In this document: positions 4,285 through 62,832 of the stretch, piece after piece
Numbering within the stretch: the stretch's first letter is position 1
How the letters are laid out: every line of letters begins with the position of its first letter
NCBI GenBank assembly: GCA_963789115.1
Contig: CAWBJH010000001.1
Coordinates: 969,419 to 1,033,418 of the forward strand
From: an uncultured delta proteobacterium
Lineage (GTDB): Bacteria; Desulfobacterota; Binatia; Binatales; Binataceae
Reading direction: 5' to 3'
DNA length: 64,000 nt
The notes under the pieces: generated by a model
What the model was told of the DNA's origin: nothing
Databases searched by the model: none
The model's input: only the letters and a program-made list of their open reading frames with translations
Program-made: the position numbers and the translations under genes

Positions 4285-4836
4285 ATGGACGGAAGACTGG
4301 TGAGACTGCGGGCTTACGAAAAGTCCGACCTGGACGCCGTGATGAAGTGGGTCAACGACGAAGAGGTCAAGCATTTCCTCGGCAGCGGTCCGCTCACCTA
4401 CCCGGTCTCGCGGATCCAGGAAGAGCAGTTCATCGAGATGGCCAACCGCCCCGCCGACGACCGCAAGACCTTCGCGATCGAAACCCTGCAAGGCGAGTAT
4501 ATCGGCGGAATCGACCTGCACGCGATCGACTGGATCTCGCGCCACGCCGAAATAGGTATCGTGATCGGCGACAAGCACTTGTGGGGCAAGGGCTACGGGA
4601 GCGACGCGATGCGCGTGCTGCTGCGGCTGGTGTTCGACAAGATGGGCCTCCATCGCGTGTGGCTGCGGGTCTACAGCTTCAACGAACGCGCCATCGCCTC
4701 TTACGAGAGGTGCGGCTTCAAGCGCGAGGGTGTGCTGCGCGAGCAGCACCTCGCCGATGGCAGGTATCACGATGTAATCGTGATGGGCCTGCTCGAACCG
4801 GAGTACCGGGCAGCTCTCGCGCCGGCCAACCCATGA
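4285..4836 (+). CDS. GNAT family N-acetyltransferase (RimL-like)
   Basis: MDGRLVRLRAYEKSDLDAV... WGKGYGSDAMR acetyl-CoA binding region. ggagg 9 nt before ATG 4285; the ORF track starts at TTG 4276. Confidence 0.8.
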   Translation: MDGRLVRLRAYEKSDLDAVMKWVNDEEVKHFLGSGPLTYPVSRIQEEQFIEMANRPADDRKTFAIETLQGEYIGGIDLHAIDWISRHAEIGIVIGDKHLWGKGYGSDAMRVLLRLVFDKMGLHRVWLRVYSFNERAIASYERCGFKREGVLREQHLADGRYHDVIVMGLLEPEYRAALAPANP

Positions 4837-5025
4837 CCGATGCGGCCGATTCGCCGCGCCGCACGCTCCGCCAGGGAGTCTTTGCCTCCTTCAATAGCGT
4901 CTTCAGATCATCTTCATTTGCCGGTCTCTCGAATATCATGCGTTTTTGCCGATGGTCTCAGCGCGACGCCGCTGCCGGGATTTTCTGCCCGAATCCATCT
5001 CACGCGTGAGCGCCGCAAACCTCCA

Positions 5026-8000
5026 TTATTCGCTCGGGCGTGGCGCGCTTTGGCTGAGGGTGCTTCTGTCTCGATAGACGAGGTAATAGATGAGGGGCAC
5101 CACGATCAGGGTGAACGCAGTCGAAGCGAAGATGCCGAAGATGAACGCCCACGCCAGCCCCGAAAAAATTGGGTCCAGCGTAATCACCGCGGAACCGAGC
5201 ATCGCGGCTCCCGCAGTAAGCGCGATGGGCCGCAGGCGGATCGCGCCTGCTTCCAGAATCGCGTCCTCCAAGCTGAGTCCACGCGCGAGGCCGCGATGAA
5301 TGAAGTCGATCAGAATGATCGAGTTGCGCACCACGATGCCTGCCAGGGCGATCATTCCGATCATCGCCGTCGCTGTGAAGAAAGTGGGATCAGGAAAACC
5401 CGCCACGGGGCGGTTGGTCACCAGGTCGAGCAGGAAGAAGCCCGGCATGATGCCGACGAGGGTAAGCGGAATCGCCGCCATAATGATGAGCGGCATCGCG
5501 AGCGATTCAGTCTGCGCAACCAGCAGCACGTAGATAAAAAAGAGCGCGGCGCCGAAGGCGAGTCCGAGGTCTCGGAAGACCGTTACCGTGATGTTCCACT
5601 CGCCCTCGCCGCTCCAGTCGATCGTATACCCTGACGGCAGCAGACTTCGTGTGTGATGTTCCAGCCAGAGGACTTCGTTCACCGGACTTACGCCGGCGGT
5701 GTCTGCCATTACCATCGCGACCTGCCGCAAGTCCTTACGGTAGATCGGCTGCTCCTCGACGGTGCTTCGAACTTCGCCGAGCTCGCCGAGGGGCACCATA
5801 CTCCCGTCAGACCCGCGGAGCTTCAGCGCCATCAGCCTGCTGGAATCGGAGCGCGCGGCCCGCGGCATCCGGAGTTCGATCACCAGCGGGTCGCGCTCGG
5901 TCTCGGTATGAACGATGTCTACCGCGTCGCCGCCGAGCATCAGCGCGAGAGTCTGCGCGACGTCCGCCGTCGCGATGCCGTGAAGTGCCGCCTTCTCGCG
6001 ATCCAGGACGAATTGCAGGCGCGGTTGGGCAGCGACGGAGAAATCATCGGTATCGACGAGACCGGCGGTGCGATCGAACACGTGCCTGAGCTCGCGTCCA
6101 TAAGCGATGAGCCGTGGGTATTCGGCTCCGGGCGGGCCGTAGATTTCGGCGACGATCGTCTCCAGCACCGGCGGCCCGGGCGGCGCCTCGACGATCTTGA
6201 CCTTCGCGCCATGCTTTCGCGCGATCGCTTCTACCAAGGGCCGGATTCGAAGCGCGATCTGATGTGAGGATTGCACCCGCGCGGTCTTTGCCGCGAGATT
6301 GATCCGAATGTCGGCCTGCCAGGGCGCGCGCCGCACGTAGTAGTGGCGGACCATCCCGTTGAAATCGAACGGGGAGGGAACGCCGGTATAAGACTCGAAA
6401 TCGGTGACTTCCGGCACTCTGCTCAGCAGCCCGTCGAAATCGCGCGTCACCCCATCGGCCGATTCCAACGGCGTACCTTCAGGCATGTCGATTACGAGCT
6501 CCAATTCGCTCTTATTGTCGAACGGCAGCATCTTGACCGGCACCAGGCCGAACACCACGAGCAGGATCGAGACGGCGAGGGCGCCACCCACGCCCAGCAG
6601 GAAAAGTCGCGCTCGCCGGCGATCTTCGAGCAGCGGACGCAGAATCCGCGCGTACCAGCGCCTGATCGTCGCCCCGTCGTCGGGTTTCTCCGCGCCGGAT
6701 GCGGGCGAGTGCTCGCGACCCAGCAGGTGATATGCAGCCCACGGCGTGATCGTGAACGCCACCACCAGCGATGTCAGCATCGCGAGCGGGACGTTGAACG
6801 GCATCGGCCGCATGTACGGCCCCATCATCCCGGTCACGAACAGCATCGGGATAAACGACGCGATGACCGTGAACGTCGCAAGGATCGTGGGCGGTCTCAC
6901 TTCGTCCACGGCGATCAGCGTGGCCTCGCGCCGCGGATGGGTGCCGAGCCGGAAATGACGGTGGATGTTCTCGACGTCGACGATCGGATCGTCGACCAGC
7001 AGGCCCAGTGACAAGATCAGCGCGAACAGCGTGACCCGGTTGATCGTATAACCCGCGATCAGATTGCCTAGCAGCGTGATCGCAAGCGTGATGGGGACCG
7101 CGATCGCAACGATGAACGCCTCCCGCGGCCCCAGCGAAAACGCAAGCAACACCACGATGATTCCGACCGCTACCAGCAGCTCTCTGACCAGTTCGTTCAC
7201 CTTCTCGTTGGCCGTCTCTCCGTAGTTGCGCGTAACGAGAACGTTCACGCTGGAAGGGATGGCCACGCCTTTGAGCGATTCGACCTTGCTGATCAGTCCT
7301 TCGGCCACTGCGACCGCGTTGGTGCCGTGCCGCTTGGCGAACGCGATCGTAACGGCCGGATAAAGCTGCGCGGGATCTCCGAGCGAATACAACTTCAATT
7401 GGCCCGGTTCCTTGAACAGATGTTCGCGGGCCGGGCCGAAGGCAATCGTCGTATACGCATCCGGTTCAGCCGGACCATCGATCACCCGCGCTACGTCGCG
7501 CAGATAGACGGGATGCCGGTCGCGCACTGCAACGACCAGGTTTGAAACCTCGGCTGCGCCCGTGAGAAACGGACCGCTATCGAGAACGTACTCGCGATCG
7601 TTGTGGGCAAAGCTGCCTGCGCGGAGGTTGGCGTCGGCGCCACGAAGGGCGTGCGCTACATCGAGAGGGTCGAGTCCACGGCCGGCAAGGCGGTCGGCAT
7701 CGAGCAGCACGCGAATTCGGCGTGGCCGACCGCCGGCCACGAACGAGCGCCCCGTGTCGGGGACCTCCTGCATACGATGCAATATTTCGTCGGCGACACG
7801 GCGCAGCGCGGGGTCGGTTTCGGTTTTGCTCCACAGCGTAACGTTGAGAATCGGCACGTCGTCGATTCCGACCGGTTTAACGATCCATCCGGTTACGCCG
7901 GGCGGAACCGCATCGCGGTTGGACTCGAGCTTGTTGTAAATCTGCACCAGGCTCTTGATTTGGTCGTAGCCCACGCGGAAACGGACCGTGACCATCGCCA

Positions 8001-8295
8001 TCCCCGGCCGCGACACGGAGTAGATGTGCTCCACCCCCTCCATTTCCCACAGGCGTTTCTCGAGGTTGATGGTGACGAGATTTTCGACTTCGGCGGCGCT
8101 CGCGCCCGGCATCTGAACGATGATGTCGGCGAGCGGTACCGAGATCTGCGGGTCTTCCTCGCGCGGCGTAACCAGCAGTGCTACCACCCCGGCGGCGAGC
8201 GAGGCGACAAGCAGCAGCATCGACAGGTTCGATCCCAGGAACCGGTCGACAATTCGCGCCGTCAGGCCCAGCTCTGCTGGAGCCGTTTCGTTCAC
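5026..8295 (-). CDS. RND efflux transporter permease subunit (HAE1/AcrB family)
   Basis: 1089 aa, 12-TM RND architecture with two large periplasmic loops. GTG start overlapping the stop of the upstream adaptor gene. Confidence 0.9.
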   Translation of the reverse strand: MNETAPAELGLTARIVDRFLGSNLSMLLLVASLAAGVVALLVTPREEDPQISVPLADIIVQMPGASAAEVENLVTINLEKRLWEMEGVEHIYSVSRPGMAMVTVRFRVGYDQIKSLVQIYNKLESNRDAVPPGVTGWIVKPVGIDDVPILNVTLWSKTETDPALRRVADEILHRMQEVPDTGRSFVAGGRPRRIRVLLDADRLAGRGLDPLDVAHALRGADANLRAGSFAHNDREYVLDSGPFLTGAAEVSNLVVAVRDRHPVYLRDVARVIDGPAEPDAYTTIAFGPAREHLFKEPGQLKLYSLGDPAQLYPAVTIAFAKRHGTNAVAVAEGLISKVESLKGVAIPSSVNVLVTRNYGETANEKVNELVRELLVAVGIIVVLLAFSLGPREAFIVAIAVPITLAITLLGNLIAGYTINRVTLFALILSLGLLVDDPIVDVENIHRHFRLGTHPRREATLIAVDEVRPPTILATFTVIASFIPMLFVTGMMGPYMRPMPFNVPLAMLTSLVVAFTITPWAAYHLLGREHSPASGAEKPDDGATIRRWYARILRPLLEDRRRARLFLLGVGGALAVSILLVVFGLVPVKMLPFDNKSELELVIDMPEGTPLESADGVTRDFDGLLSRVPEVTDFESYTGVPSPFDFNGMVRHYYVRRAPWQADIRINLAAKTARVQSSHQIALRIRPLVEAIARKHGAKVKIVEAPPGPPVLETIVAEIYGPPGAEYPRLIAYGRELRHVFDRTAGLVDTDDFSVAAQPRLQFVLDREKAALHGIATADVAQTLALMLGGDAVDIVHTETERDPLVIELRMPRAARSDSSRLMALKLRGSDGSMVPLGELGEVRSTVEEQPIYRKDLRQVAMVMADTAGVSPVNEVLWLEHHTRSLLPSGYTIDWSGEGEWNITVTVFRDLGLAFGAALFFIYVLLVAQTESLAMPLIIMAAIPLTLVGIMPGFFLLDLVTNRPVAGFPDPTFFTATAMIGMIALAGIVVRNSIILIDFIHRGLARGLSLEDAILEAGAIRLRPIALTAGAAMLGSAVITLDPIFSGLAWAFIFGIFASTAFTLIVVPLIYYLVYRDRSTLSQSAPRPSE

Positions 8296-9389
8296 TTGGT
8301 ATCAACTGCGGGGCTGTCGAGGATGACGCGCTGGCCCGCACGAAGCCCGGCGAGGACCTCTACGCGATCGCCAAAACGGCGCCCCAGCGAGACCATCTGG
8401 GTCTGAATTCTTCCTTCAGAAATCACGCGCGCGGTGTCGAGCTGACCCACCTCTTCGATTGCATCGCGCGGCACGGTGAGGACCGTCTCGCTTCCGGTCG
8501 TAAAGGTCGCCCGCGCGAACATTCCCGGCTGGAGATGCTGGCCGCTCGGCAGCGGCGCACGAACTATGAAGCTCCTGCTCGTCGGATCCGAAGCGGGCAC
8601 GATTTCGGTTACTTGCGTGTGGTACTCCACGCCGGTCGCGTCGACCCTGACCTGGAGCAGTGTTCCAGTGTCGATGCTGCGCGCCAGATCCTCGGGCACC
8701 TCCAGTTCGACTCGCAGCGCGTTCTTGTCGTAGAGCCGGACTAGCGGCTTACCCGGCATCGCCATGTCGCCCGGCTCGGCAAGGCGTTCCACGACCACGC
8801 CGTCGACCGGCGAGCGGACGGTTGCATACTCCAACGCCGCGCGCGCCGCTGCGACCGCGGCTTGGGCCTGCGCAACTCTTCCCGTCGCGCCTCGGTACGC
8901 GGCCTCGGCGGCGTCGTGTTCGCTCGCTGTCACGGAGCCGCGCGTGAACAGCGCCGAGAACCGCTTCTCGTCCGCGCTGGCGCGGCTCAGCTCGCCTTGC
9001 GCCGCGGCCAGTTGCCCCTGAGCCTGTGCAACCTGGGCTTTGAGTTCCGCAGCGTTGAGCGCGACGATCGCCTGTCCACGGTTCACCCGGTCACCCGCGC
9101 GGACCCCGACTTCGGTGACGCGCGCAGCGATACGGCTTGCCGCCTCGACCGGGAGCCTCGACTGGATCGAGCCGATCACCTCGCGACGCACGGGGATCTT
9201 CTCACTGAGCACCACTCCGAGCGGGCGGCTTGGAATTTGATCGGCGCTCTGACTGAGCAACCCCGGCTCGATCCTGCCGCCCCGAATCACTCGGACCGCG
9301 AGCCAGAGCAGGGCGATACCGATCGCGGCTGCGAGCAGATAACGCCATCCGGGGCGCACATGGCGCGATTCGGTTAACAGGTCTGCCAT
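8292..9389 (-). CDS. RND efflux periplasmic adaptor (membrane fusion protein)
   Basis: N-terminal TM, coiled-coil hairpin (AQVAQAQGQLAAAQGEL), beta-barrel and MP domains. Start trimmed to MADLL (ATG 9389). Confidence 0.8.
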   Translation of the reverse strand: MADLLTESRHVRPGWRYLLAAAIGIALLWLAVRVIRGGRIEPGLLSQSADQIPSRPLGVVLSEKIPVRREVIGSIQSRLPVEAASRIAARVTEVGVRAGDRVNRGQAIVALNAAELKAQVAQAQGQLAAAQGELSRASADEKRFSALFTRGSVTASEHDAAEAAYRGATGRVAQAQAAVAAARAALEYATVRSPVDGVVVERLAEPGDMAMPGKPLVRLYDKNALRVELEVPEDLARSIDTGTLLQVRVDATGVEYHTQVTEIVPASDPTSRSFIVRAPLPSGQHLQPGMFARATFTTGSETVLTVPRDAIEEVGQLDTARVISEGRIQTQMVSLGRRFGDRVEVLAGLRAGQRVILDSPAVDTK

Positions 9390-52737: not shown

Positions 52738-52826
52738 CGTATCAGCATCCCCCTTCCCGTCTTTAGCAGTCTGCGCGCCGTGTGAGCCCATCTTCGCGGC
52801 GCGCCCTTGGGGCCCAGGGTTGAAAG

Positions 52827-52858
52827 ATCTTCGGCCTCATCTTTATTTCGGGCGCGGC
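52827..52858. repeat. 32-bp direct repeat DR-left of putative island (also rsmI upstream region)
   Basis: atcttcggcctcatctttatttcgggcgcggc matches 59521-59554 with 2 differences. Confidence 0.75.
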
Positions 52859-52877: not shown

Positions 52878-53828
52878 CTAGAACAACGACTGCTGTAAGG
52901 CGACCGGAGCCGGTTCCGCTAACCTGTCAGGCAACGGCTTGAGTTCGTCCTCGAAACGAAACCGACTCGCTTCGAGGTACGGCGCGTGGTGTTCTACGGC
53001 TATCCACTTTCGGCCCTCGCGTTCACAGGCCTCGCCGGTCGTGTTGCTGCCCGCAAACGGGTCAAGCACGAGATCGCCGGGGTCGGTGAGGAACCGAATA
53101 AAGAAGGTCGGAAGCTGAACCGGGAATCGCGCGGGATGAGGCGTCATGTGGTTCAGCTTGCAGAGTTCGAGATAACGTCCGTTTGCGTCGTTGTTGCCGT
53201 GTACCAGGAGATTCGACGGGATCGAACCTCCCCGGTCAGTAAACTTCCTGGTTATTACGTGTCCTGACGGCCGGACCTTTGGACGGTAGCCTCGCTTAAC
53301 CAACCGGTGCATGTCAGGGCTGTATTCGTTCAACACCTTTTGATTGTCGGACTTCGGGTTGGGTGTCTTTGACAACCACCAAAGGCAGTTGACCGCGTCT
53401 TTCACCCTGATCTTTCTGACAGTGACCCACTCCGCCGGCGAGGGGAGCTTAGCGGGGTTGTACCAATAGAACTCCTGTGCGAGGTAAAACCCGACTTCGC
53501 GAACGAGCGCGATCAGCAACTCGAAGTGGTAGAGCGAGCGCGTCGGTTTGCCGGGCGTCCACGCGCCGCCAATGTCGATCACGAAACTGCCGTCGTCGCG
53601 AAGAAGGCGGTGGACCTGGCGAGCAAATGGCAAGAACCATTCGACATACCGGCGCTGGTCGGCGTTGCCGTATTCCTTCTTGAAGTGAAGCGCGTAAGGC
53701 GGTGACGTGAACGCGAGGTTCACGCTCGCGGTCTCAAGGCCGGCCATAAGGGGCAGGGAATCGGCTAAGTAGGCGCGCCCGAGTTTCGTTGCGTAAAGGG
53801 GCTTGGAGGCTTTGAGGGGCGACTGCAC
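52878..53828 (-). CDS. DNA methyltransferase (beta-class N4-cytosine/N6-adenine type, SPPY)
   Basis: Motif IV TSPPY N-terminal and motif [12 protein letters not shown]-terminal. No adjacent restriction gene. Confidence 0.85.
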
Positions 53829-54359: not shown

Positions 54360-55439
54360 TTACTTGTACGCCGCGTAGTCTACGGAGCGCTGACGGGCGC
54401 GCGCATCGTTCCACGCGTTCATGTCGGTCGGCGGCCTGATGATCTCTTCTTGCGGCTTGGCGACCAACTTGATCGCATCCCGCGGGCAGGCCGTCACGCA
54501 CAGCCCGCACCCGATGCAGCGTTCTTTGATCACTTGGTATGTGGTGTCGCCCTCCTCGATGGCCCGGACCTGGCAGCGCTCTTCGAGGCAGATGCCGCAC
54601 CAGTCGCACTCGTCCCCCTCGATCTCCGCACAAAAGTCTGAGTTGACGACGGCGGGCGCATTGAGCTCGTTCATCGCGCGCAACACGTTGCAACAGCATC
54701 CACAACAGTTGCAGATGAAGGTATGCCCGCTCTCCAAGTTGCTTGTGAGATGCACCAAGCCGGCCTCCTCGGCCTCGCGCAGCAGTTGGTACGCCTGCTC
54801 CTTCGAAATCTCGCGTCCCCAGTCGAGAATGAATCCTGCTCCCTCCACCGGGCTGATCGCCAAGCACACCTCATGAGGTTTCTTGCAAGGCTCGGCCAGG
54901 ATGCCGCGTTCCTTCTTGCAGATGCATTCGTTTAAGCGAAAACCCTTGCCGTTCTCGACGATGGCGGAGACCTGCTGGTAGGGCAGGGCCTGGTGCGTGA
55001 CGGGAATTTCCGTCTGGATCGGCAGCGTCCGCATGACGTGCGGCTGGGCGCCGAACAGGTTGCGAGCGAAGTGCGCCATGTACTGCTCGGTCAGCTCGCA
55101 GAATTCGCGGTCCATGCGGCCAACCTGAAACTCCCAAATACCCACCGCCCACGGCTGCATCGCGAACAATTTGATGCTGCCGAAATCGATGCCCAGGAGC
55201 TCACCGCGCCTGGCCATCGACGTCAGCTTCGCCTCGAGCCCGTCCGGCGAGCGCCCTGTCCGCTCGGCAACCTGCCCTGCGGTTTCGAGGCTCAGTTTCA
55301 AATCACAGAACAGCTCGGCCTCGTCGGGCGTGAAGACTTTCTTCAAGAGTTTGATTTCCAGGCCGTCCGGTGTCGCCGGAAACCCGTTGGGAAGCGTATC
55401 CAGCACCTTGGCAACTCTGCGGTAGATCTCGTCAGTCAT
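54360..55439 (-). CDS. Fe-S cluster-binding protein (4Fe-4S ferredoxin-domain plus Cys-rich CNCCGCCC motif)
   Basis: CICKKERGILAEPCKKPHEVC, CNCCGCCC and CIGCGLCVTACP cysteine clusters. Confidence 0.6.
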   Translation of the reverse strand: MTDEIYRRVAKVLDTLPNGFPATPDGLEIKLLKKVFTPDEAELFCDLKLSLETAGQVAERTGRSPDGLEAKLTSMARRGELLGIDFGSIKLFAMQPWAVGIWEFQVGRMDREFCELTEQYMAHFARNLFGAQPHVMRTLPIQTEIPVTHQALPYQQVSAIVENGKGFRLNECICKKERGILAEPCKKPHEVCLAISPVEGAGFILDWGREISKEQAYQLLREAEEAGLVHLTSNLESGHTFICNCCGCCCNVLRAMNELNAPAVVNSDFCAEIEGDECDWCGICLEERCQVRAIEEGDTTYQVIKERCIGCGLCVTACPRDAIKLVAKPQEEIIRPPTDMNAWNDARARQRSVDYAAYK

Positions 55440-56032: not shown

Positions 56033-56220
56033 TCACACGTAATGCCCCAAGATTGAGGCCGCAACGTCCCTGTGAACGCGTTTGGATTCGTGGAAATGAA
56101 TCTCGGTCTGGTATTGCGGCCATTGTCCGGCATGGCGAATGCGATACACCACCTCGGCCTCGACGGTTTCGATATCTAGCATTGCGTTGTCAACCGACGC
56201 GTCATCATGGCACCAGACAT
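56033..56220 (-). pseudogene. C-terminal fragment of the GIY-YIG gene displaced by the IS insertion
   Basis: Reads (L)DVWCHDDASVDNAMLDIETVEAEVVYRIRHAGQWPQYQTEIHFHESKRVHRDVAASILGHYV* in the same frame as 57514-57762 once the IS and one CTAG copy are removed. Confidence 0.6.
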
Positions 56221-56224
56221 CTAG

Positions 56225-57509
56225 CAGGTTGCGGAAAAACGGATGATTACCATGGCGGGATGTGCTTTCGAGAGTGTTGGCATGGCGTGTGAGGGCGTCG
56301 ATTGAGGTTCAGTTGGTCAAGTGCCCCGGCTCTCCACCCGATTGCGGATGGCTCAGGGAGCTGCCAGCGCCAAATTGCGCATCCTGACCAGATTGTAGGC
56401 GGCCAGCGCGAAGGTGAATATCCAACCGACCCGAGCGACTCCGCGGTGGCGCGCCTTGCGCAGGCCGGCGACAGTTTTGAGCCAGCCGAAGATCTCCTCG
56501 ATGCGTTTACGCTTGTGCTGGCTGATCAGATAGCCGGGATGACGAGTGGTCCTTTCATCAATGATAGTGGACGGCTTGCAGGCAAGGTGCGGGGTGACCT
56601 GGTGATCACGCAACTCCTGAACAAGTTCTTTGCGGTCGTAGCCCTTGTCGGCTCCCAGGGTTACTCGATGCGAGCCTGGGATTTTTTCCACCATCGCGAT
56701 GGCCGCCTCCGGTTCGGCGCGGCCGGTGGCCTGGGTTACGCAGCCTTGGACCGCAATGCCGTTGCGGTTCTCCATCAGCACGTGTCCGGCGTAGCTGAGC
56801 TTGGCCTCCTTGCCTGCACCCTTGCGGGCCAGGCGGGCCTCGGGATCGGTGGTCGATTGGTGAGTGGCGTTGCTGCGCCGCTCACCGTGGAAGTCGACGC
56901 TGGGGTTGCCCGGATCGTCCGGCGGAGTCTTTGGGTCAGCGCCTTTGCGCTTGAAGCTCTTGTGGCTGGCCCAGGCCTCGATCAGCGTGCCGTCGACCGT
57001 GAAATGCTCGTCCGAAAGCAGGCTTTGGGCGCGGGCCTGGTCAACCACCGCGATGAAAAACCCCTCCGCCACCTCGCCCTCAAGCAACCGCTCGCGGTTT
57101 TTGGTGAACACGGTCACGTCCCACACCGGGTCATCGATGCTCAGTCCGACGAACCAGCGGAACAGGAAATTGTAGTCGAGCTGCTCCATCAACAGCCGCT
57201 CACTGCGCACCGTGTACAGCACCTGCAGCAAAAGCGCGCGCAGAAGCTTCTCCGGCGCGATCGAGGGACGCCCGCTGCTGGCGTAAATCGCATCGAAGCT
57301 CGGCCCCAACTTTTCAAGCGCCACATCCGCCATCGCTCGGATCGCTCGCAGCGGATGGTCTTGGGGCACCCGCTGCTCGGCCGATATGTAGCTGAACATC
57401 GCAGACTGCTGGCGATCCGTCCCGCGCATCCTCACACCCTCCTCACACCACCATCGCTGGCTACTCTACATGAGAATCGAATGGGAAACGATCGTTTTTC
57501 CGCATCCTG
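56225..57509 (-). mobile_element. IS5-family insertion sequence with 21-bp imperfect terminal inverted repeats and CTAG target duplication
   Basis: IR-L caggttgcggaaaaacggatg at 56225-56245. IR-R (reverse complement) caggatgcggaaaaacgatcg at 57489-57509. ctag at 56221-56224 and 57510-57513. Confidence 0.8.
56353..57435 (-). CDS. IS5-family DDE transposase
   Basis: 360 aa. MFSYISAEQRVPQDHPLR N-terminus and DDE region typical of the IS5 group. Confidence 0.85.
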   Translation of the reverse strand: MRMRGTDRQQSAMFSYISAEQRVPQDHPLRAIRAMADVALEKLGPSFDAIYASSGRPSIAPEKLLRALLLQVLYTVRSERLLMEQLDYNFLFRWFVGLSIDDPVWDVTVFTKNRERLLEGEVAEGFFIAVVDQARAQSLLSDEHFTVDGTLIEAWASHKSFKRKGADPKTPPDDPGNPSVDFHGERRSNATHQSTTDPEARLARKGAGKEAKLSYAGHVLMENRNGIAVQGCVTQATGRAEPEAAIAMVEKIPGSHRVTLGADKGYDRKELVQELRDHQVTPHLACKPSTIIDERTTRHPGYLISQHKRKRIEEIFGWLKTVAGLRKARHRGVARVGWIFTFALAAYNLVRMRNLALAAP

Positions 57510-57513
57510 CTAG

Positions 57514-57762
57514 GTCTGCTGCGGTGAGATGACGTCGGAAGAGATAGCCATAGTAGCCGCCCTTCCCCTTCGCGTTCCAGCCGAAACGTAGTCGATTGCG
57601 CATATGCTGCTTCGTGACGCCAACATAGATCGGTGTCTTGGCGACGCTAAAAACATACAACTTCGGCTTCTTCGATACGGCGATTCCGGCAAACCTCGGT
57701 GCGACCTCAAAGGCCTTCTCGTCGAAAGTTAGTCGGTATCGGTCAGGTCCGGTGACGCGCAT
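57514..57762 (-). pseudogene. GIY-YIG nuclease-domain gene, N-terminal part (interrupted by IS)
   Basis: KLYVFSVAKTPIYVGVTKQHMRNRL matches GIY-(9-11)-YIG with the downstream conserved Arg. The frame runs into the IS at 57513. Confidence 0.6.
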
Positions 57763-58479: not shown

Positions 58480-58956
58480 ATGAAACCCCTGTTTTTCTGT
58501 GGATTGTTGGTGCTCCTGAGCGGCCACGCATGGGCGGAGTGCATACCGTCTCCGGAATGCGTGCAAGCCATAAGGGACACGCCTCTCAACCCACGGACAC
58601 TTGGAGAGAAGTGGGATGCGGAACAAAGAGTGGCCCTAATGTGCAAAGAGTACCGGGAATGCAGAGTAGAGCAGGCGGCTCACGAGGAACAGCAGCGCGA
58701 AAAGCTGCAGCAGATGGAAGAGCGGCGGCAGCAGAAGGAATCATTTGATCGGGAAGTGGATCAGGATGCGGAGGGATGGGTAGAAACCCAGATCAAAGGA
58801 AAAGACCCGAAAGGAATCCGTGAACTGATCGCATCTCAGGAAAACTGGTTAAAAGATCATCCCGCCGCCGAACCTGCACCCGACATGCACGCGCGGATAA
58901 GAAAACTGCGCGACCGGCTTCGCGACATGGAGCGAACGAAACCTGTAGTCCAATGA
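58480..58956 (+). CDS. hypothetical secreted protein (signal peptide, Glu/Gln/Arg-rich helical region)
   Basis: MKPLFFCGLLVLLSGHAWA signal. Lower GC. Confidence 0.45.
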   Translation: MKPLFFCGLLVLLSGHAWAECIPSPECVQAIRDTPLNPRTLGEKWDAEQRVALMCKEYRECRVEQAAHEEQQREKLQQMEERRQQKESFDREVDQDAEGWVETQIKGKDPKGIRELIASQENWLKDHPAAEPAPDMHARIRKLRDRLRDMERTKPVVQ

Positions 58957-59055
58957 AACCAGTCCGGATCACGAAGCTCACGGCCCTGCTCACGGGCTCC
59001 CCGGCCTTTGCGCTCTCCGGCCCTTTCTCGTTGGACGGGGGATCGCGAAGCTCGG

Positions 59056-59514
59056 TTAATGCCGCGCAATCAAGCCGACGACCGTCGCAAAAAGGGTAAC
59101 CAGCGCGACCACACACGTGAAAGCAACCCAGACGTGCGTGCGGTGAATAACATCCCATCCCGCCCCTGTAAGCCGATACATGACGACCATGTTGCTCACA
59201 ATCGGGAAGTTCGGCGGTAGGTCACCGCTTGGCGTGAGCTGCCATTTAGGTATGGCTCTATGGTCTATTGGCTCCGCCCATCCACGAAGATCACAGGTTC
59301 GCAACGCTTCATCAACGCCTTCATCGCTCGTCGGGCCTAGTTCAATGACCCAAGCGTTGCCGGGCTGAAGGATCGTCACGATCCGCTGGCGGGCAAGCCG
59401 CTTCAGCACGCGCCGGATGGCTCGTTCACGTCGGAAGCCAAGAAGAAGATCCATTTCGTCTGAACATAGCCTTGCGGCCCATCCGTTGCCATCGAATGGG
59501 CTAACTGCTATCAA
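59056..59514 (-). CDS. hypothetical protein with C-terminal TM helix
   Basis: 152 aa, TTG start. VWVAFTCVVALVTLFATVVGLIARH anchor. Confidence 0.4.
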   Translation of the reverse strand: MIAVSPFDGNGWAARLCSDEMDLLLGFRRERAIRRVLKRLARQRIVTILQPGNAWVIELGPTSDEGVDEALRTCDLRGWAEPIDHRAIPKWQLTPSGDLPPNFPIVSNMVVMYRLTGAGWDVIHRTHVWVAFTCVVALVTLFATVVGLIARH

Positions 59515-59520
59515 CAGCTC

Positions 59521-59554
59521 ATCTCTTCGGCCCCATCTTTATTTCGGGCGCGGC
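59521..59554. repeat. 34-bp direct repeat DR-right of putative island
   Basis: atctcttcggccccatctttatttcgggcgcggc. Followed directly by a G9 tract (59555-59563). Confidence 0.75.
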
Positions 59555-59566
59555 GGGGGGGGGAGG

Positions 59567-60346
59567 ATGGTGGTCAAGATGGTGACAGTACAGTATCAAG
59601 AACGATTCGTAGCATTCGTCGATATCTGGGGGTTTGGCGATCTGGTGCGTCGGTCCGTTCTTGGCAATGACGGCATCAGCGCCTCGACCGTCCATGACGT
59701 TTTAGACCTGCCGAAGCCGAGCGATGAAGACCAAATCGTGCTTGGGCGGATCGGCGATATTTCAAAGTCCGGGCATTGTATGACTGCATTTTCTGATTGC
59801 GTTGTTATATCGACAGACCTCACCGAGGCCGGACTCATACATCTCGTCGACCACGTCTCAAGAATTGGCTTCCGCCTTCTCAAGATCGGGTACCTCTATC
59901 GCGGTGGCGTAGTCCGGGGACTACTCTGGCATCAGCCCGACAAGGTGTTTGGCCCGGCGCTGATTGAGGCATATCAGATCGAGCGTACCGAACGTTTTCT
60001 GCGAGTGCTCGTCTCCGACGATGTTGTGAAATGGGGACTGGGTTGCGCGAAACCCGTGAACACGATCTTCAGTAGACTCATTCGCAAGGATGACGATGGC
60101 AAATACATGGTTCACGTGCTCAGATACTTCTCGCAATTCGATGATCTCACCAACTTACGAGACAAGATCAGCGAGGTCAGGGACCGGTTCGAGAAGAAAT
60201 TAACTAGGTTGACGCAAAACCAAATGGCCGAGGCGGCGGGAAAGGTATCTTGGTTTCTAAGGTACTTTGATCGGATTACGATCCGACCGAACTTGAACGT
60301 GCCTTTCCCGGCTGTCAGGCCGCTGAAAGCTACTGACGCCCGGTAA
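59567..60346 (+). CDS. class III nucleotidyl-cyclase-like domain protein (stand-alone)
   Basis: FVAFVDIWGFGDL (cf. F.DI.GFT), RIGDISKSGH (cf. TIGDAYMA), GYLYRGGVVRGLLWH...VFGPALIEAYQIE (cf. GIHSGPVVAGVIG...YDVWGDTVNLASRME). The G9 tract forms the RBS. Confidence 0.55.
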   Translation: MVVKMVTVQYQERFVAFVDIWGFGDLVRRSVLGNDGISASTVHDVLDLPKPSDEDQIVLGRIGDISKSGHCMTAFSDCVVISTDLTEAGLIHLVDHVSRIGFRLLKIGYLYRGGVVRGLLWHQPDKVFGPALIEAYQIERTERFLRVLVSDDVVKWGLGCAKPVNTIFSRLIRKDDDGKYMVHVLRYFSQFDDLTNLRDKISEVRDRFEKKLTRLTQNQMAEAAGKVSWFLRYFDRITIRPNLNVPFPAVRPLKATDAR

Positions 60347-60650
60347 GCCTATCTACAAAGCCCGCAAATTCTTCATCTCTACGGTCGGGCGGGATCTTTC
60401 CGAACCCATCCAGTATTTGCTTTTGGAAGGAGCAAGCCGGTTTGCCGTTTTTTAATTTGATTTCCAAGAGCAAGTAGCGATTTGTGCTTGACAACGTGTC
60501 ATAGACCGCCAGCTCACGATTGTTATGCGAGTCCAAGCAGGCACGGTGGGATTCGAGGGTTCGCTCCATGTCAGGGTCGTTGGCGCACTGAGTTAGAGAC
60601 AGAACACTCAAAACGGCACAAGCAAACACACACGCGCGGAGTTTCAACAT
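60330..60650 (-). CDS. small secreted/lipoprotein-like hypothetical protein
   Basis: 106 aa, hydrophobic N-terminus ending LSLTQC. Convergent with and overlapping the cyclase-like gene by 17 bp. Confidence 0.4.
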   Translation of the reverse strand: MLKLRACVFACAVLSVLSLTQCANDPDMERTLESHRACLDSHNNRELAVYDTLSSTNRYLLLEIKLKNGKPACSFQKQILDGFGKIPPDRRDEEFAGFVDRLTGRQ

Positions 60651-60744
60651 TTGGCCCCCAATTTATCACGATGCGCCCTTCGGCTGGTGAGTCTCATTTT
60701 ACGAACCTTCCCCGCTTATCGCGTGCTGCATTGCGCGCGGGCGC

Positions 60745-60804
60745 GGTCGGCGCGCACTTTGAGCGCATCCTAAACTCAAAAGCAGGCTGCTTGCAAAGGG
60801 CGAC
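60745..60804. repeat. 60-bp intergenic repeat, copy A
   Basis: cgcgcactttgagcgcatcctaaactc....gcaggctgcttgcaaagggcg matches 62878-62940 at about 92%. Confidence 0.7.
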
Positions 60805-60877
60805 GTCCTGACGGCGCATCGGGGCGCGCTCGTTTGTGGATGGGGGTTTCGGCAAAATACGGTCGCGCGGTCTGAAT

Positions 60878-60918
60878 GGCCCCCCGCGCCCGCGACCCCC
60901 CGGCCCCCTAGATAAACC
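60878..60918. repeat. C-rich repeat (G-rich on the minus strand), copy A
   Basis: ggccccccgcgcccgcgaccccccggccccctag matches 62359-62400. Confidence 0.6.
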
Positions 60919-60967
60919 AAAGTTTTAGGTTTCCGGGGCTCGTGCTTGCGGCCCGGCGACGTGGGCT

Positions 60968-61080
60968 CACGGACAAGCTGCCGGGATCATCCTGCCTCCT
61001 CGACCGAGATCGCCCCGCACGCGGGCTCTGGCGCGGAAGAGTCGCCCGGCTGCAGGCCCGGATCGGCGGCTTCGGCCACA
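60968..61080. repeat. GC-rich dispersed repeat, copy B
   Basis: Matches 55830-55960. Confidence 0.6.
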
Positions 61081-61560
61081 CGGCGGGGCGTGTGGGGCCG
61101 GTGTTTCGGCTTGACGCAGGGCCGCCCCAGGCCCCGGAGAAGGGCAAGACGGGCCGAACGCGGCGGGCGCGGGCGGGCGTTTGGCGGCCAGGAGAACGCG
61201 CTTCCGGCTCCGTCGTCCCAGGCTGCCGGGCCAAAATCAAAACGGCCTGCGTCCAAGCCTCACCCTCCCTATTTTTGACCCCCGACGTTCATACGCACCA
61301 CGACAGGCGACATAATCGGTCGTAAGTAGCGGGAATCATTAAGGAAAACGCAAGGAAAGAAGATCGAATGCCGGGGCGCGGGCGTGGACGGCCCCGGATC
61401 AAAGCAGGAGGAAATATCCTGGGGTCGTGCGTCCCACTGTGTCTCGTGGGGTTCGTACCCTCCAATACGAGTTTCCGGAAATGATGCACTGCCGGTCAAT
61501 CATTGCCCGGCGACCCCGCACCTCGGACGTGGACTAATGCCCACGTTTCGGGGCTTTTTC

Positions 61561-61637
61561 TGGCGCCCCCTGCGGGATTCGAACCCACGACCCCAGGATT
61601 AGGAATCCTGTGCTCTATCCATCTGAGCTAAGGGGGC
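61561..61637 (-). tRNA. tRNA-Arg (anticodon CCT), CCA encoded
   Basis: Manual fold: acceptor GCCCCCT/AGGGGGC, D-arm GCTC-AGATGGATA-GAGC, anticodon arm CAGGA-TTCCTAA-TCCTG, T-arm GTGGG-TTCGAAT-CCCGC, discriminator G, then CCA. Confidence 0.85.
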
Positions 61638-61763: not shown

Positions 61764-62174
61764 TCATGCGAGGTCGCCTTTGCGGCGGTAAAGGAGCACG
61801 GCTGCTCCCGACGACACGCCGATCGCGACGAAAGGGTAAGGTACAAGGTAGCCCCACGAGTGCTCCTGCATCACCGGGGTGCCATGGTACTTCGCGACGA
61901 ACAGGATCATGTTGACGATCACGTACGCCGCGTAAAAAATCCCGATCGGCAGCGCAAACTTGCGCATCGCCAGGATTCCGTACGCGTACACGGCAAGAAT
62001 CACCCCGAAAATCGGAGCGATGATCATGTTGGGCACGCCCGCAAGCCGCGTGCCCAGGAAGACGAAGCCGACGCCGGCATGATGCGAGAATGGCTTGCTG
62101 AAATTGGAAATCGCCATCAGCGCGAGCAGCAGCGCGAAAATCGTCAAAGTCGCGCCGCGCGATTTATTGGGCAT
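61764..62174 (-). CDS. hypothetical 4-TM membrane protein
   Basis: 136 aa, hydrophobic throughout. Start preceded by ggagg and the conserved 61-bp element. Confidence 0.5.
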   Translation of the reverse strand: MPNKSRGATLTIFALLLALMAISNFSKPFSHHAGVGFVFLGTRLAGVPNMIIAPIFGVILAVYAYGILAMRKFALPIGIFYAAYVIVNMILFVAKYHGTPVMQEHSWGYLVPYPFVAIGVSSGAAVLLYRRKGDLA

Positions 62175-62244: not shown

Positions 62245-62358
62245 TTTTAGCCGGTTTTGGTCCACGGTGTTTCCGGCGGCGCGCCGGGGGGGCGGTTTCG
62301 CATCTCAGGGACACACAACGCTTGGAAATGATCCCCGTTGAAAAGGCTCGGCCAAGTT

Positions 62359-62430: not shown

Positions 62431-62832
62431 TTACGCTGTCAATCGCGAGGCCTTTGCGCTCTCACTGCGCGGAGTCAGCACCGCGAGCACGATCGCGACC
62501 ATGAACAGCGCCGGGACGTCGCCGAGCAGATGGCCTCGATGCTCCGGATAGACGAGCGCCTGCACCAGCATGATCGCGCCGTGCACGACGCTGGACCATA
62601 CGGTGAACCAGATGAGGCTCAGATTTTCCAGCGGATTGCGTGACGCGATAATCAGGAAGACGCCGAGCGTCGCATACACGCCGAGGATCATCTGCAGATA
62701 CATCGACTGTCCCGTGTGCCAGGTCCATCCCGAGGGCCACAGTAGCGTGAGCAGATAAATTCCTACGACGAAAATCGCGCCGACCACTACCAGCGCGACC
62801 CGCAGATAGCCGAGCCGATCGCCATTAGCCAT
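62431..62832 (-). CDS. hypothetical 4-TM membrane protein
   Basis: 133 aa, hydrophobic helices. Confidence 0.5.
   Translation of the reverse strand: MANGDRLGYLRVALVVVGAIFVVGIYLLTLLWPSGWTWHTGQSMYLQMILGVYATLGVFLIIASRNPLENLSLIWFTVWSSVVHGAIMLVQALVYPEHRGHLLGDVPALFMVAIVLAVLTPRSESAKASRLTA

Follow-up and report, generated by a model that had tools for sequence, protein, structure and literature searches.

A solitary PanT-family gene encoding a predicted class-III-cyclase-like protein in an uncultured member of the Binataceae

Between positions 969,419 and 1,033,418 of contig CAWBJH010000001.1 (GenBank assembly GCA_963789115.1), the genome of an uncultured delta proteobacterium of the family Binataceae (Desulfobacterota, Binatia, Binatales) carries a small gene for a protein with a predicted class-III-cyclase-like fold, which is the subject of this report. 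The whole 64-kb stretch was analysed and is termed “the window” throughout; its GC content is 0.631, and positions are counted from its first nucleotide. The gene is located on the plus strand (59579..60346), directly behind a run of nine G residues (G9) and the right border of a 6.7-kb insert, between a divergent and a convergent small gene and upstream of a tRNA-Arg gene. An earlier, sequence-only reading had described the open reading frame (ORF), the G9 tract, the two flanking genes and the tRNA-Arg, all of which are present as described (direct reading, ARAGORN). It had likened the product to the small cyclases of cyclic-nucleotide-based antiphage systems or, alternatively, to an ordinary adenylate cyclase, and had raised the idea of phase variation through the G tract. 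The relationship outlined below, which by sequence homology connects the protein with the phage-encoded toxin PanT, was absent from that reading.

The gene, its start codon and the G9 tract

The coding sequence (CDS) of the cyclase-fold protein comprises 255 amino acids (aa), as judged from direct reading, from an identical deposited protein (P0001) and from the N-termini of homologues; residue numbers refer to this 255-aa version, unless 259-aa numbering is indicated. In a direct reading of positions 58800-61200, the sequence 3' of the G9 run is AGG ATG(59567) GTG GTC AAG ATG(59579), and the frame continues uninterrupted down to a TAA at 60344-60346. While ATG 59567 and GTG 59570 are in-frame alternatives, ATG 59579 is the likely start, since the identical deposited protein is 255 aa long, and the start codons of homologues, which fall 4-8 residues ahead of a Y..R.VAFVDILGF motif, agree with this position. 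The Shine-Dalgarno candidate for this start is GGAGGA (59562-59567). A further upstream ATG (59417), which would yield a protein of 309 aa and place the G9 tract in frame as Gly-Gly-Gly, was discarded, as it overlaps the divergent gene and a 31-nucleotide (nt) repeat and adds an extension that is found in no homologue. With a GC content of 0.527, compared to 0.631 for the window, the CDS forms a low-GC islet together with the convergent gene (0.508), and no paralogue was found in the window. The best-supported reading is that the gene is intact and was acquired horizontally.

The G9 homopolymer (59555..59563, plus strand; direct reading) merges at its 3' end into the GGAGGA sequence. If the latter represents the Shine-Dalgarno sequence, the tract adds only its last G's, and the earlier view that it forms the ribosome-binding site is correct for these G's and incorrect for the rest of the tract, which lies outside. 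The proposal that the tract serves as a slipped-strand phase-variation switch of the gene can point to the position of the run directly upstream of the start, and to the fact that it is the sole homopolymer of at least nine and the longest in the window, where the only other run of at least seven is a G7 at 62286-62292. Yet, the occurrence of such a tract in a 63%-GC sequence is no more than chance: one G9/C9 run was observed versus 0.98 expected, and at least one was present in 50 of 100 dinucleotide-preserving shuffles. Since the tract lies 5' of the CDS, slippage cannot shift the reading frame, and since it lies 5' of the Shine-Dalgarno “A”, the gain or loss of one G changes neither the GGAGG core nor its spacing to the start. 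The distance from the tract to the candidate starts is only 3-15 nt, and therefore, there is no room for a -10 element and no role as a -35/-10 spacer; no promoter-like hexamers or sigma-70-like promoter were detected in a scan around the tract. Moreover, the tract is not conserved: upstream of 89 homologues, homopolymers of at least seven were found in three cases, every one composed of A or T, and a G/C tract in none, and the homologues do not support the use of ATG 59417 either. A phase switch is very unlikely on these grounds, and the G9 run most probably just happens to lie upstream of the gene, where the 31-nt insertion repeat ends.

Family, predicted fold and active site of the protein

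Scans of the query against Pfam, NCBIfam and PADLOC gave no match (Pfam, including PF00211 Guanylate_cyc, and PADLOC at E<=1). The same scans of 139 relatives produced nothing relevant; PF00211 did not match any of them at E<=0.01, and PADLOC returned only two marginal, unrelated matches. Likewise, no cyclase chain was retrieved from the PDB sequences, either via phmmer with the query or via the 139-sequence family profile. The sequence-only reading had itself named the lack of a significant match to cyclase profiles as an outcome that would speak against a cyclase, and at the sequence level this is what was found.

The protein nevertheless belongs to a very large family, which spans many phyla as well as phages and plasmids, yet is modelled in none of Pfam, NCBIfam and PADLOC. 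When 5.8 billion proteins were searched by a word index, 29 relatives only were retrieved, none of which has a Pfam domain; a profile run against 1.84 billion cluster representatives (50% identity) yielded 12,156 sequences at E<=1e-3, of which 7,804 remain at E<=1e-10. With few exceptions, members are 230-300 aa long, and the mean column identity across the family is about 21%. The stand-alone architecture that had been noted for the window protein holds for the family: a fused Pfam domain is present in 0/139 members and in none of the 10 longest sequences of the top list. Among the PHROG families of phage proteins, phrog_23933 matches all 139 members (best E 1e-42) and phrog_21097 matches 125, both being of unknown function. 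Carriers of a family member include 48 plasmids and 39 IMG/VR viral contigs.

A tblastn search of phage genomes matched gp8 of the P2-like Burkholderia phages phi52237, phiX216, BEK and others. In phi52237, gp8 (YP_293707.1) is located directly after gp9 (DUF4065) and beside the integrase, and it represents a moron of the P2-like prophage. This gene product was described as PanT(Bur. phage), a “putative nucleotide cyclase” toxin with an HHpred probability of 97% to adenylate/guanylate cyclases, which is toxic in Escherichia coli and is neutralised through complex formation with the Panacea antitoxin PanA (gp9, YP_863932.1) (Kurata et al. 2022, PMC8832971). PanT inhibits transcription more strongly than translation, and translation more strongly than replication; it induces RelA-dependent ppGpp and does not deplete ATP (PMC8832971). 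In the literature we found no later paper on the biochemistry of the PanT cyclase-like toxin. The family profile aligns with PanT YP_293707.1 over 236 columns, which cover the catalytic domain and the C-terminal Lys helices (hhalign, probability 99.9%, E 1.8e-31), the family hidden Markov model matches gp8 at 2.7e-45, and pairwise BLASTP with PanT gives 32% identity over 150 residues (E 1e-14). Based on these alignments, the window protein can be assigned to the PanT family as a bona fide member.

An AlphaFold2 model built on 29 sequences (predicted local distance difference test score, pLDDT, 85.1; predicted template modelling score, pTM, 0.82) features a beta-alpha-beta-beta-alpha-beta core followed by helices. 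In a Foldseek search against the PDB, each of the top 50 matches was a class III adenylyl/guanylyl cyclase or a class-III-like domain; CyaB (3r5g; E 4.8e-5, probability 1.0) ranked first, and the target-normalised TM-score reached up to 0.60. According to the model, the protein would adopt a highly divergent class-III-cyclase-like fold, and the proposal of such a fold, which the sequence-only reading had recommended to check with AlphaFold and Foldseek, has held up. The predicted catalytic domain extends over about residues 7-178 (59597..60112, plus strand), as delimited by AlphaFold2, Foldseek and, at low confidence, a relaxed hhalign alignment to Rv1625c. The catalytic-domain reference of Rv1625c is 100% identical to PDB 4p2x_A residues 66-239; the overall probability of the alignment between the family profile and this domain was 9%, and it was used for local motif mapping only.

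The predicted first metal-binding residue is Asp15 in FVDIWGF (codon 59621..59623, plus strand), a position occupied by Asp in 138/139 members, and the predicted second one is Asp73 in FSD (codon 59795..59797, plus strand), which is Asp in 139/139 and sits in the beta2-beta3 hairpin, between the model strands E71-75 and E78-84 (259-aa numbering). In the relaxed, low-confidence hhalign alignment, AFVDILGF pairs with FADIVGF of Rv1625c, such that Asp15 is matched with the Asp of this motif, and FSD pairs with SGD. Further downstream follows a conserved block, R108-G109...G114...H118...G125..A131...E135 (RGGVVRGLLWH...VFGPALIEAYQIE; 59900..59983, plus strand), which is invariant or nearly so throughout the family and contains the confident hhalign segment, where VFGxAxxxAyxlE is paired with VWGDAVNVASRME of Rv1625c. 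The C-terminal part forms a helical hairpin (about residues 190-235; 60146..60283, plus strand) with DSSP helices at 194-217 and 221-239 (259-aa numbering); it harbours the near-invariant Lys222 in a K..WF..Y.N motif and is aligned in PanT as well. Among the 139 members, R108 is conserved in 138, G109 and G125 in 139, H118 in 137, E135 in 136 and K222 in 132; G114, A131, P141, S72 and S78 are also essentially invariant. The window protein keeps D15, G18, F19, S72, D73, S78, R108, G109, G114, H118, G125, A131, E135 and K222, and it departs from the family by a Leu in place of P141 (Pro in 137/139; codon 59999-60001) and a Trp in place of L17 (Leu in 122/139; codon 59627-59629).

Three cyclase blocks had been recognised by the sequence-only reading. 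Two of them, FxDIxGF and RGG..G..H...VFG..A...E, are real and family-wide, while the third, IGD, is not a real motif: I62-G63-D64 (259-aa numbering) is kept only in close relatives and is part of a low-confidence loop, in which residues 54-59 have a pLDDT <50 and the block 61-70 averages 66. In the model, the structural equivalent of the cyclase “IGD” would rather be the FSD turn between two strands.

Class III cyclases employ a transition-state-stabilising Asn and Arg, which are located in a G-x-x-V-N-x-A-x-R-x-E helix, and a base-specifying residue pair, Lys/Asp in adenylyl and Glu/Cys in guanylyl cyclases. Across the 139 members, the Asn-equivalent column contains V/I/Q/L/M/H (I in the window protein), and the Arg-equivalent column contains R/E/H/K/D/Q (Q in the window protein). 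Four residues before D73, the position that a low-confidence alignment pairs with the adenine-specifying Lys is T/Q, and the column 3 residues before G125 is variable, an alignment likewise of low confidence, where the partner residues could also come from another subunit. The comparison suggests that the two-metal site has been kept, and that the Asn/Arg residues defining mononucleotide cyclases have not.

Surroundings of the gene in the window and in other genomes

Convergent to the CDS and overlapping its 3' end by 17 nt, a gene at 60330..60650 (minus strand) encodes a 106-aa putative lipoprotein or secreted protein with a signal/lipobox-like N-terminus (LSLTQC). This protein gave no Pfam or PADLOC match and was rejected as a candidate effector, because no homologue is found beside family genes elsewhere. 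On the other side, a divergent 152-aa ORF (59056..59514, minus strand; with an internal ATG as the probable start, about 132 aa) is predicted to contain a C-terminal transmembrane helix. It has no Pfam match and no cross-locus match among the neighbours of family genes, and its 11 homologues of about 130 aa have no Pfam domain. A role of this protein as a hidden antitoxin was considered on account of a faint tblastn match to a PanA (E 8.5) and dismissed, since none of the 11 homologues is encoded beside a family member. The ORF lies within the repeat-bounded insert and belongs to separately inserted DNA, and it does not form a pair with the cyclase-fold gene. A tblastn comparison of two PanA proteins with the 64 kb revealed no Panacea gene in the window (best E 1.2). 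Furthermore, there is no co-directional gene downstream of the CDS, in keeping with the earlier remark that no obvious effector follows on the same strand.

The insert is bracketed by two copies of a 31-nt direct repeat (TCTTCGGCCYCATCTTTATTTCGGGCGCGGC; left copy 52828..52858, right copy 59524..59554, plus strand), which are 30/31 identical and outside of which the flanks diverge immediately. The bracketed 6.7 kb have a GC content of 0.603 and carry, all on the minus strand, the genes for an N6/N4 DNA methylase (52878-53828), an Fe-S protein (54360-55439) and an IS5/DUF772-type DDE transposase (56353-57435), as well as small ORFs including the 152-aa ORF; an integrase was not seen in the insert. 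The IS5-like transposase gene is flanked by 54-nt imperfect inverted repeats (56200-56253 / 57481-57534, 70% complementary), and a 98-aa ORF without a Pfam match (57466-57762, minus strand) lies directly at the right inverted repeat, and the insertion sequence (IS) element may have truncated it. The right copy of the 31-nt repeat stops exactly at the first G of the G9 tract, 25 nt before the probable start codon. Just upstream of the left copy lies a TTGAAA hexamer (52820-52825), which has no counterpart upstream of the right copy. The cyclase-fold gene is an accessory-genome passenger beside this inserted element with its DNA methylase and IS element.

At a distance of 1.2 kb downstream, the window contains a tRNA-Arg(CCT) gene (61561..61637, minus strand; ARAGORN, Rfam tRNA 67.8 bits). 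About 150 nt from it, a 17-nt segment (61416-61432) is the reverse complement (16/17) of an internal part of the tRNA (61583-61599); the segment is inverted and not direct, and therefore does not constitute a classical att duplication. GC-rich intergenic direct repeats of 73, 33, 66 and 61 nt (60736-60808/62870-62942; 60883-60915/62361-62393; 55904-55969/61036-61101; 23236-23296/62185-62245), which are 71-93% identical, cluster near the tRNA-Arg and occur elsewhere. They match no Rfam family and may represent REP-like (repetitive extragenic palindromic) elements or repeated regulatory sequences. Past the tRNA follow the genes for a 136-aa protein with multiple transmembrane segments (61764-62174, minus strand), which has no Pfam match, and for a DUF6632 membrane protein (62431-62832, minus strand; E 1.1e-41), both of which appear unrelated to the cyclase-fold gene.

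The neighbourhoods of homologous genes were surveyed in 80 genome loci and 8 metagenome or phage loci by all-against-all clustering of the ORFs within 3.5 kb. In about 85 loci, no conserved neighbour was common to more than 6, and no recurrent transmembrane or TIR effector was found. Pfam and PADLOC scans of 150 immediate neighbours did not identify a conserved partner; the commonest Pfam among them, a helix-turn-helix (HTH) domain, occurs in 4, and the 25 commonest Pfams include no effector-type family. PanA is detectable in 4/133 family loci, all of the Burkholderia-phage type. The ORF picking was crude and missed a true PanA ORF in one locus (L008), which lowers the sensitivity of the survey, yet cannot fake an absence across all loci.

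Some associations recur on a smaller scale. A type I HsdM occurs in three loci, once overlapping the family gene start, and HsdS is found as well: in L075 HsdM (4472-6004) is followed by the family gene (6001-6759), in L076 tandem family genes (5944-6807 and 6973-7800) precede HsdM (7763-9298), and in L062 the family member is likewise embedded in or abuts a type I restriction-modification operon. Such loci are reminiscent of PrrC-like toxins, which ride inside type I restriction-modification loci. Tandem family duplicates are present at L021 as well as at L076. In three distant taxa (Pseudoxanthomonas, a Hominifimenecus species and Paenibacillus), a ParA/MinD-like ATPase of about 350 aa (AAA_31, CbiA) ends at or overlaps the family gene start (L053:4922-5989, L066:4913-5965, L068:4901-5968), which suggests that the ATPase and the cyclase-fold gene form a distinct two-gene subtype of the family. 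The immediate neighbours also include AbiH, ApeA and HsdS, some family loci are rich in toxin-antitoxin or conjugative-element genes, and one contains a Tn3-type resolvase. On the Agrobacterium tumefaciens plasmid pAtG3_79a (L094, 268-4852), a family member is located 150 nt downstream of, and co-directional with, the gene for the anti-phage sirtuin Dsr1 (DSR1). Outside the source genome, the nearest relative (46% identity) is encoded in a Nitrospirales metagenome-assembled genome (L001/L009, 11193-16928), where the genes for an uncharacterised 396-aa protein, a Peptidase_C14 (caspase-like) protein and a Y4kD_C protein, and then for QueC and TGT homologues, follow downstream. The Nitrospirales locus is possibly a defence or DNA-modification island.

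Interpretation and comparison with known systems

The reading we favour, for which we consider the prospects of being right or wrong about evenly balanced, takes the window gene for an accessory gene of the toxin or defence type, which was gained horizontally, is mobile and solitary, and encodes a PanT-type nucleotidyl-transferase. Asp15 and Asp73 would hold the two metal ions, and Arg108, His118 and Lys222 are family-specific candidates for substrate contacts. The active enzyme would convert NTP to a toxic or non-canonical nucleotide product, or it would nucleotidylate a cellular target; as a result, macromolecular synthesis would be halted, and transcription and translation would be arrested, as is the case with PanT. 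Since neither an antitoxin nor an effector accompanies the gene, control would have to be intrinsic, exerted by the C-terminal hairpin or the oligomeric state, or take place at the expression level. The hairpin is a candidate regulatory or substrate-binding element, which is not simply a fused antitoxin, because PanT has the hairpin, too.

Several points weigh against the favoured reading. PanT is the one studied member of the family, and the identity of the window protein to PanT amounts to about 21-32% only. While toxicity was shown for PanT, the toxicity, catalysis and product of the window protein and of the solitary members are putative. Unless its resting state is inactive, a toxin that has no antitoxin is difficult to retain, and the regulation assumed here is hypothetical. 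P141L and L17W might render the protein less active, the native -35 region may have been lost through the 6.7-kb insertion, and a scan detected no sigma-70-like promoter for the gene. Finally, defence genes are sporadic among the immediate neighbours of family members, at about 10/150 by raw count.

A more far-reaching proposal, which we put forward as a tentative possibility only, is that the solitary family members, which occur on phages and plasmids, in restriction-modification loci and in defence islands, act as an abortive-infection or defence system that consists of a single gene, is widespread and has so far escaped notice; the window gene would be a functional example. The protein would then be a non-canonical enzyme with a class-III-cyclase fold, in which His118 and Lys222 are used and the Asn/Arg pair is dispensed with. 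It would remain inactive until infection and subsequently produce a toxic nucleotide of a new kind, or nucleotidylate a component of the machinery for transcription or translation.

Other explanations do not invoke toxicity, or doubt that the gene still functions. The family might serve a non-toxic role on mobile elements, or the protein might be a non-catalytic nucleotide binder; conceivable examples of such roles are regulators, sensors and palm-domain enzymes that act on the ends of nucleic acids. The toxicity of PanT would then be a derived trait of the Burkholderia-phage clade, which alone needs PanA. More than 95% of the sampled loci are without a detectable PanA, a conserved antitoxin-like neighbour was not found, the subgroups that are operonic with ParA-like ATPases or HsdM hint at other couplings, and non-catalytic, class-III-like ATP-binding proteins do exist, one of which (PDB 6yii) is among the Foldseek matches. 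Taken together, these possibilities appear rather unlikely: at a mean column identity of about 21%, both Asp residues as well as R108, H118, E135 and K222 are almost invariant, which is typical of an active enzyme, and the carriage by phages and plasmids along with the defence-gene neighbours fits a role in genetic conflict. Alternatively, the window gene could be a silenced or decaying orphan, which was cut off from its promoter by the 6.7-kb insertion, is weakened in its activity and has been kept by chance. The proximity of the right 31-nt copy to the start, the TTGAAA hexamer that is present upstream of the left copy only, the lack of a promoter-like site, the two exchanges at near-invariant positions and the fact that the deposited protein forms a singleton cluster are compatible with decay, yet the ORF is of full length and free of frameshifts or stops, every putative catalytic residue is retained, the GGAGGA Shine-Dalgarno sequence is strong, and promoter scans are unreliable for a high-GC organism. 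We therefore deem a decayed gene unlikely.

The two options of the sequence-only reading fare less well. The gene might encode the cyclase of a Pycsar-like cyclic-nucleotide antiphage system, with the effector located elsewhere or represented by the small membrane or secreted protein on one of its flanks. The predicted class-III-cyclase-like fold with both metal-binding Asp residues, the small size without a sensor domain, the accessory context and the transmembrane and secreted proteins at either side would suit such a system. However, no PADLOC model matches the query or any of the 139 relatives, and Guanylate_cyc does not match; there is no co-directional gene downstream, and the about 85 homologous loci, the inspection of which had been recommended, contain no conserved transmembrane, TIR or other effector. 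Neither flanking protein has a homologue beside another family member, the upstream gene is part of the separate insert, and the canonical Asn/Arg cyclisation pair is missing. A Pycsar-like function is hence quite improbable. An ordinary housekeeping adenylate or guanylate cyclase, which produces cAMP or cGMP, would account for the similarity of the fold to bacterial and eukaryotic class III cyclases, but this relationship is undetectable for PF00211 and for the PDB cyclase sequences, even with the 139-sequence profile. The equivalents of the Asn (V/I/Q/L) and the Arg (R/E/H/K) are variable, and the Lys-aligned position is T/Q according to a low-confidence mapping; the gene is of low GC content, its family is patchy, associated with mobile elements and represented on phages and plasmids, and PanT, the one relative that was tested, acts as a toxin without depleting ATP. 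A housekeeping cyclase appears extremely improbable, and in all likelihood, the window gene is neither a cAMP/cGMP signalling enzyme nor a phase-variable locus.

Within a known, barely characterised toxin family, the window gene represents a variant without a partner, and the locus as such is one ordinary instance of the family. The interest lies in the family, in its chemistry, its non-canonical active site and a possible role in single-gene defence. Two aspects are added here: most family members are solitary, the validated toxin with its dependence on PanA being a rare exception, and the catalytic core appears to keep the two-metal site while replacing the residues that define mononucleotide cyclases. 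Thereby, a “cyclase-like hypothetical” protein turns into a concrete and testable biochemical and phage-defence hypothesis.

Compared to known systems, the window gene qualifies neither as a canonical class III cyclase nor as a Pycsar system or a PanAT module, since defining features of each were looked for and are lacking. With the class III cyclases (PF00211; Rv1625c, Pseudomonas aeruginosa CyaB 3r5g, Spirulina CyaC 1wc1), the protein has in common the predicted fold, a first Asp in F-x-D-I-x-G-F, a second one in the beta2-beta3 hairpin, and a G...A...E helix motif after a beta-hairpin. In contrast to these enzymes, its family gives no sequence-profile match, does not conserve the transition-state Asn/Arg, possesses invariants of its own (S72, S78, H118, P141, K222) and an extra C-terminal helical hairpin, and has no regulatory domains attached. 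The PycC proteins of Pycsar systems are also small cyclase-fold enzymes in accessory or defence contexts, whereas the window family is without a PADLOC match, an adjacent transmembrane or TIR effector and the canonical catalytic pair.

A functional analogy may be drawn to CapRel(SJ46) (PMC9712102), which is a single polypeptide from a toxin family that elsewhere is paired with Panacea antitoxins. By this analogy, the C-terminal extension could act as an intramolecular regulator, which for the hairpin of the window protein is hypothetical; the presence of the same hairpin in the PanA-dependent PanT argues against its being a CapRel-like replacement of the antitoxin. Moreover, the catalytic fold of CapRel(SJ46) is of the RelA/SpoT type rather than of the cyclase type.

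The PanA-PanT type II module itself comprises an adjacent DUF4065/SocA_Panacea gene, which the window does not contain: PanT(Bur. phage) is directly preceded by a co-directional DUF4065/Panacea antitoxin gene, whereas the window gene is without one, and PanT features an N-terminal extension of about 40 residues and a beta-hairpin insertion. Beyond these differences, the two proteins are homologous over their full length and have in common the AFVDILGF, FSD and RGG..G..YH...VFGPA...AY..E motifs as well as the C-terminal Lys. Both are proteins of about 250-310 aa and of a single architecture, and both are encoded on horizontally acquired DNA.

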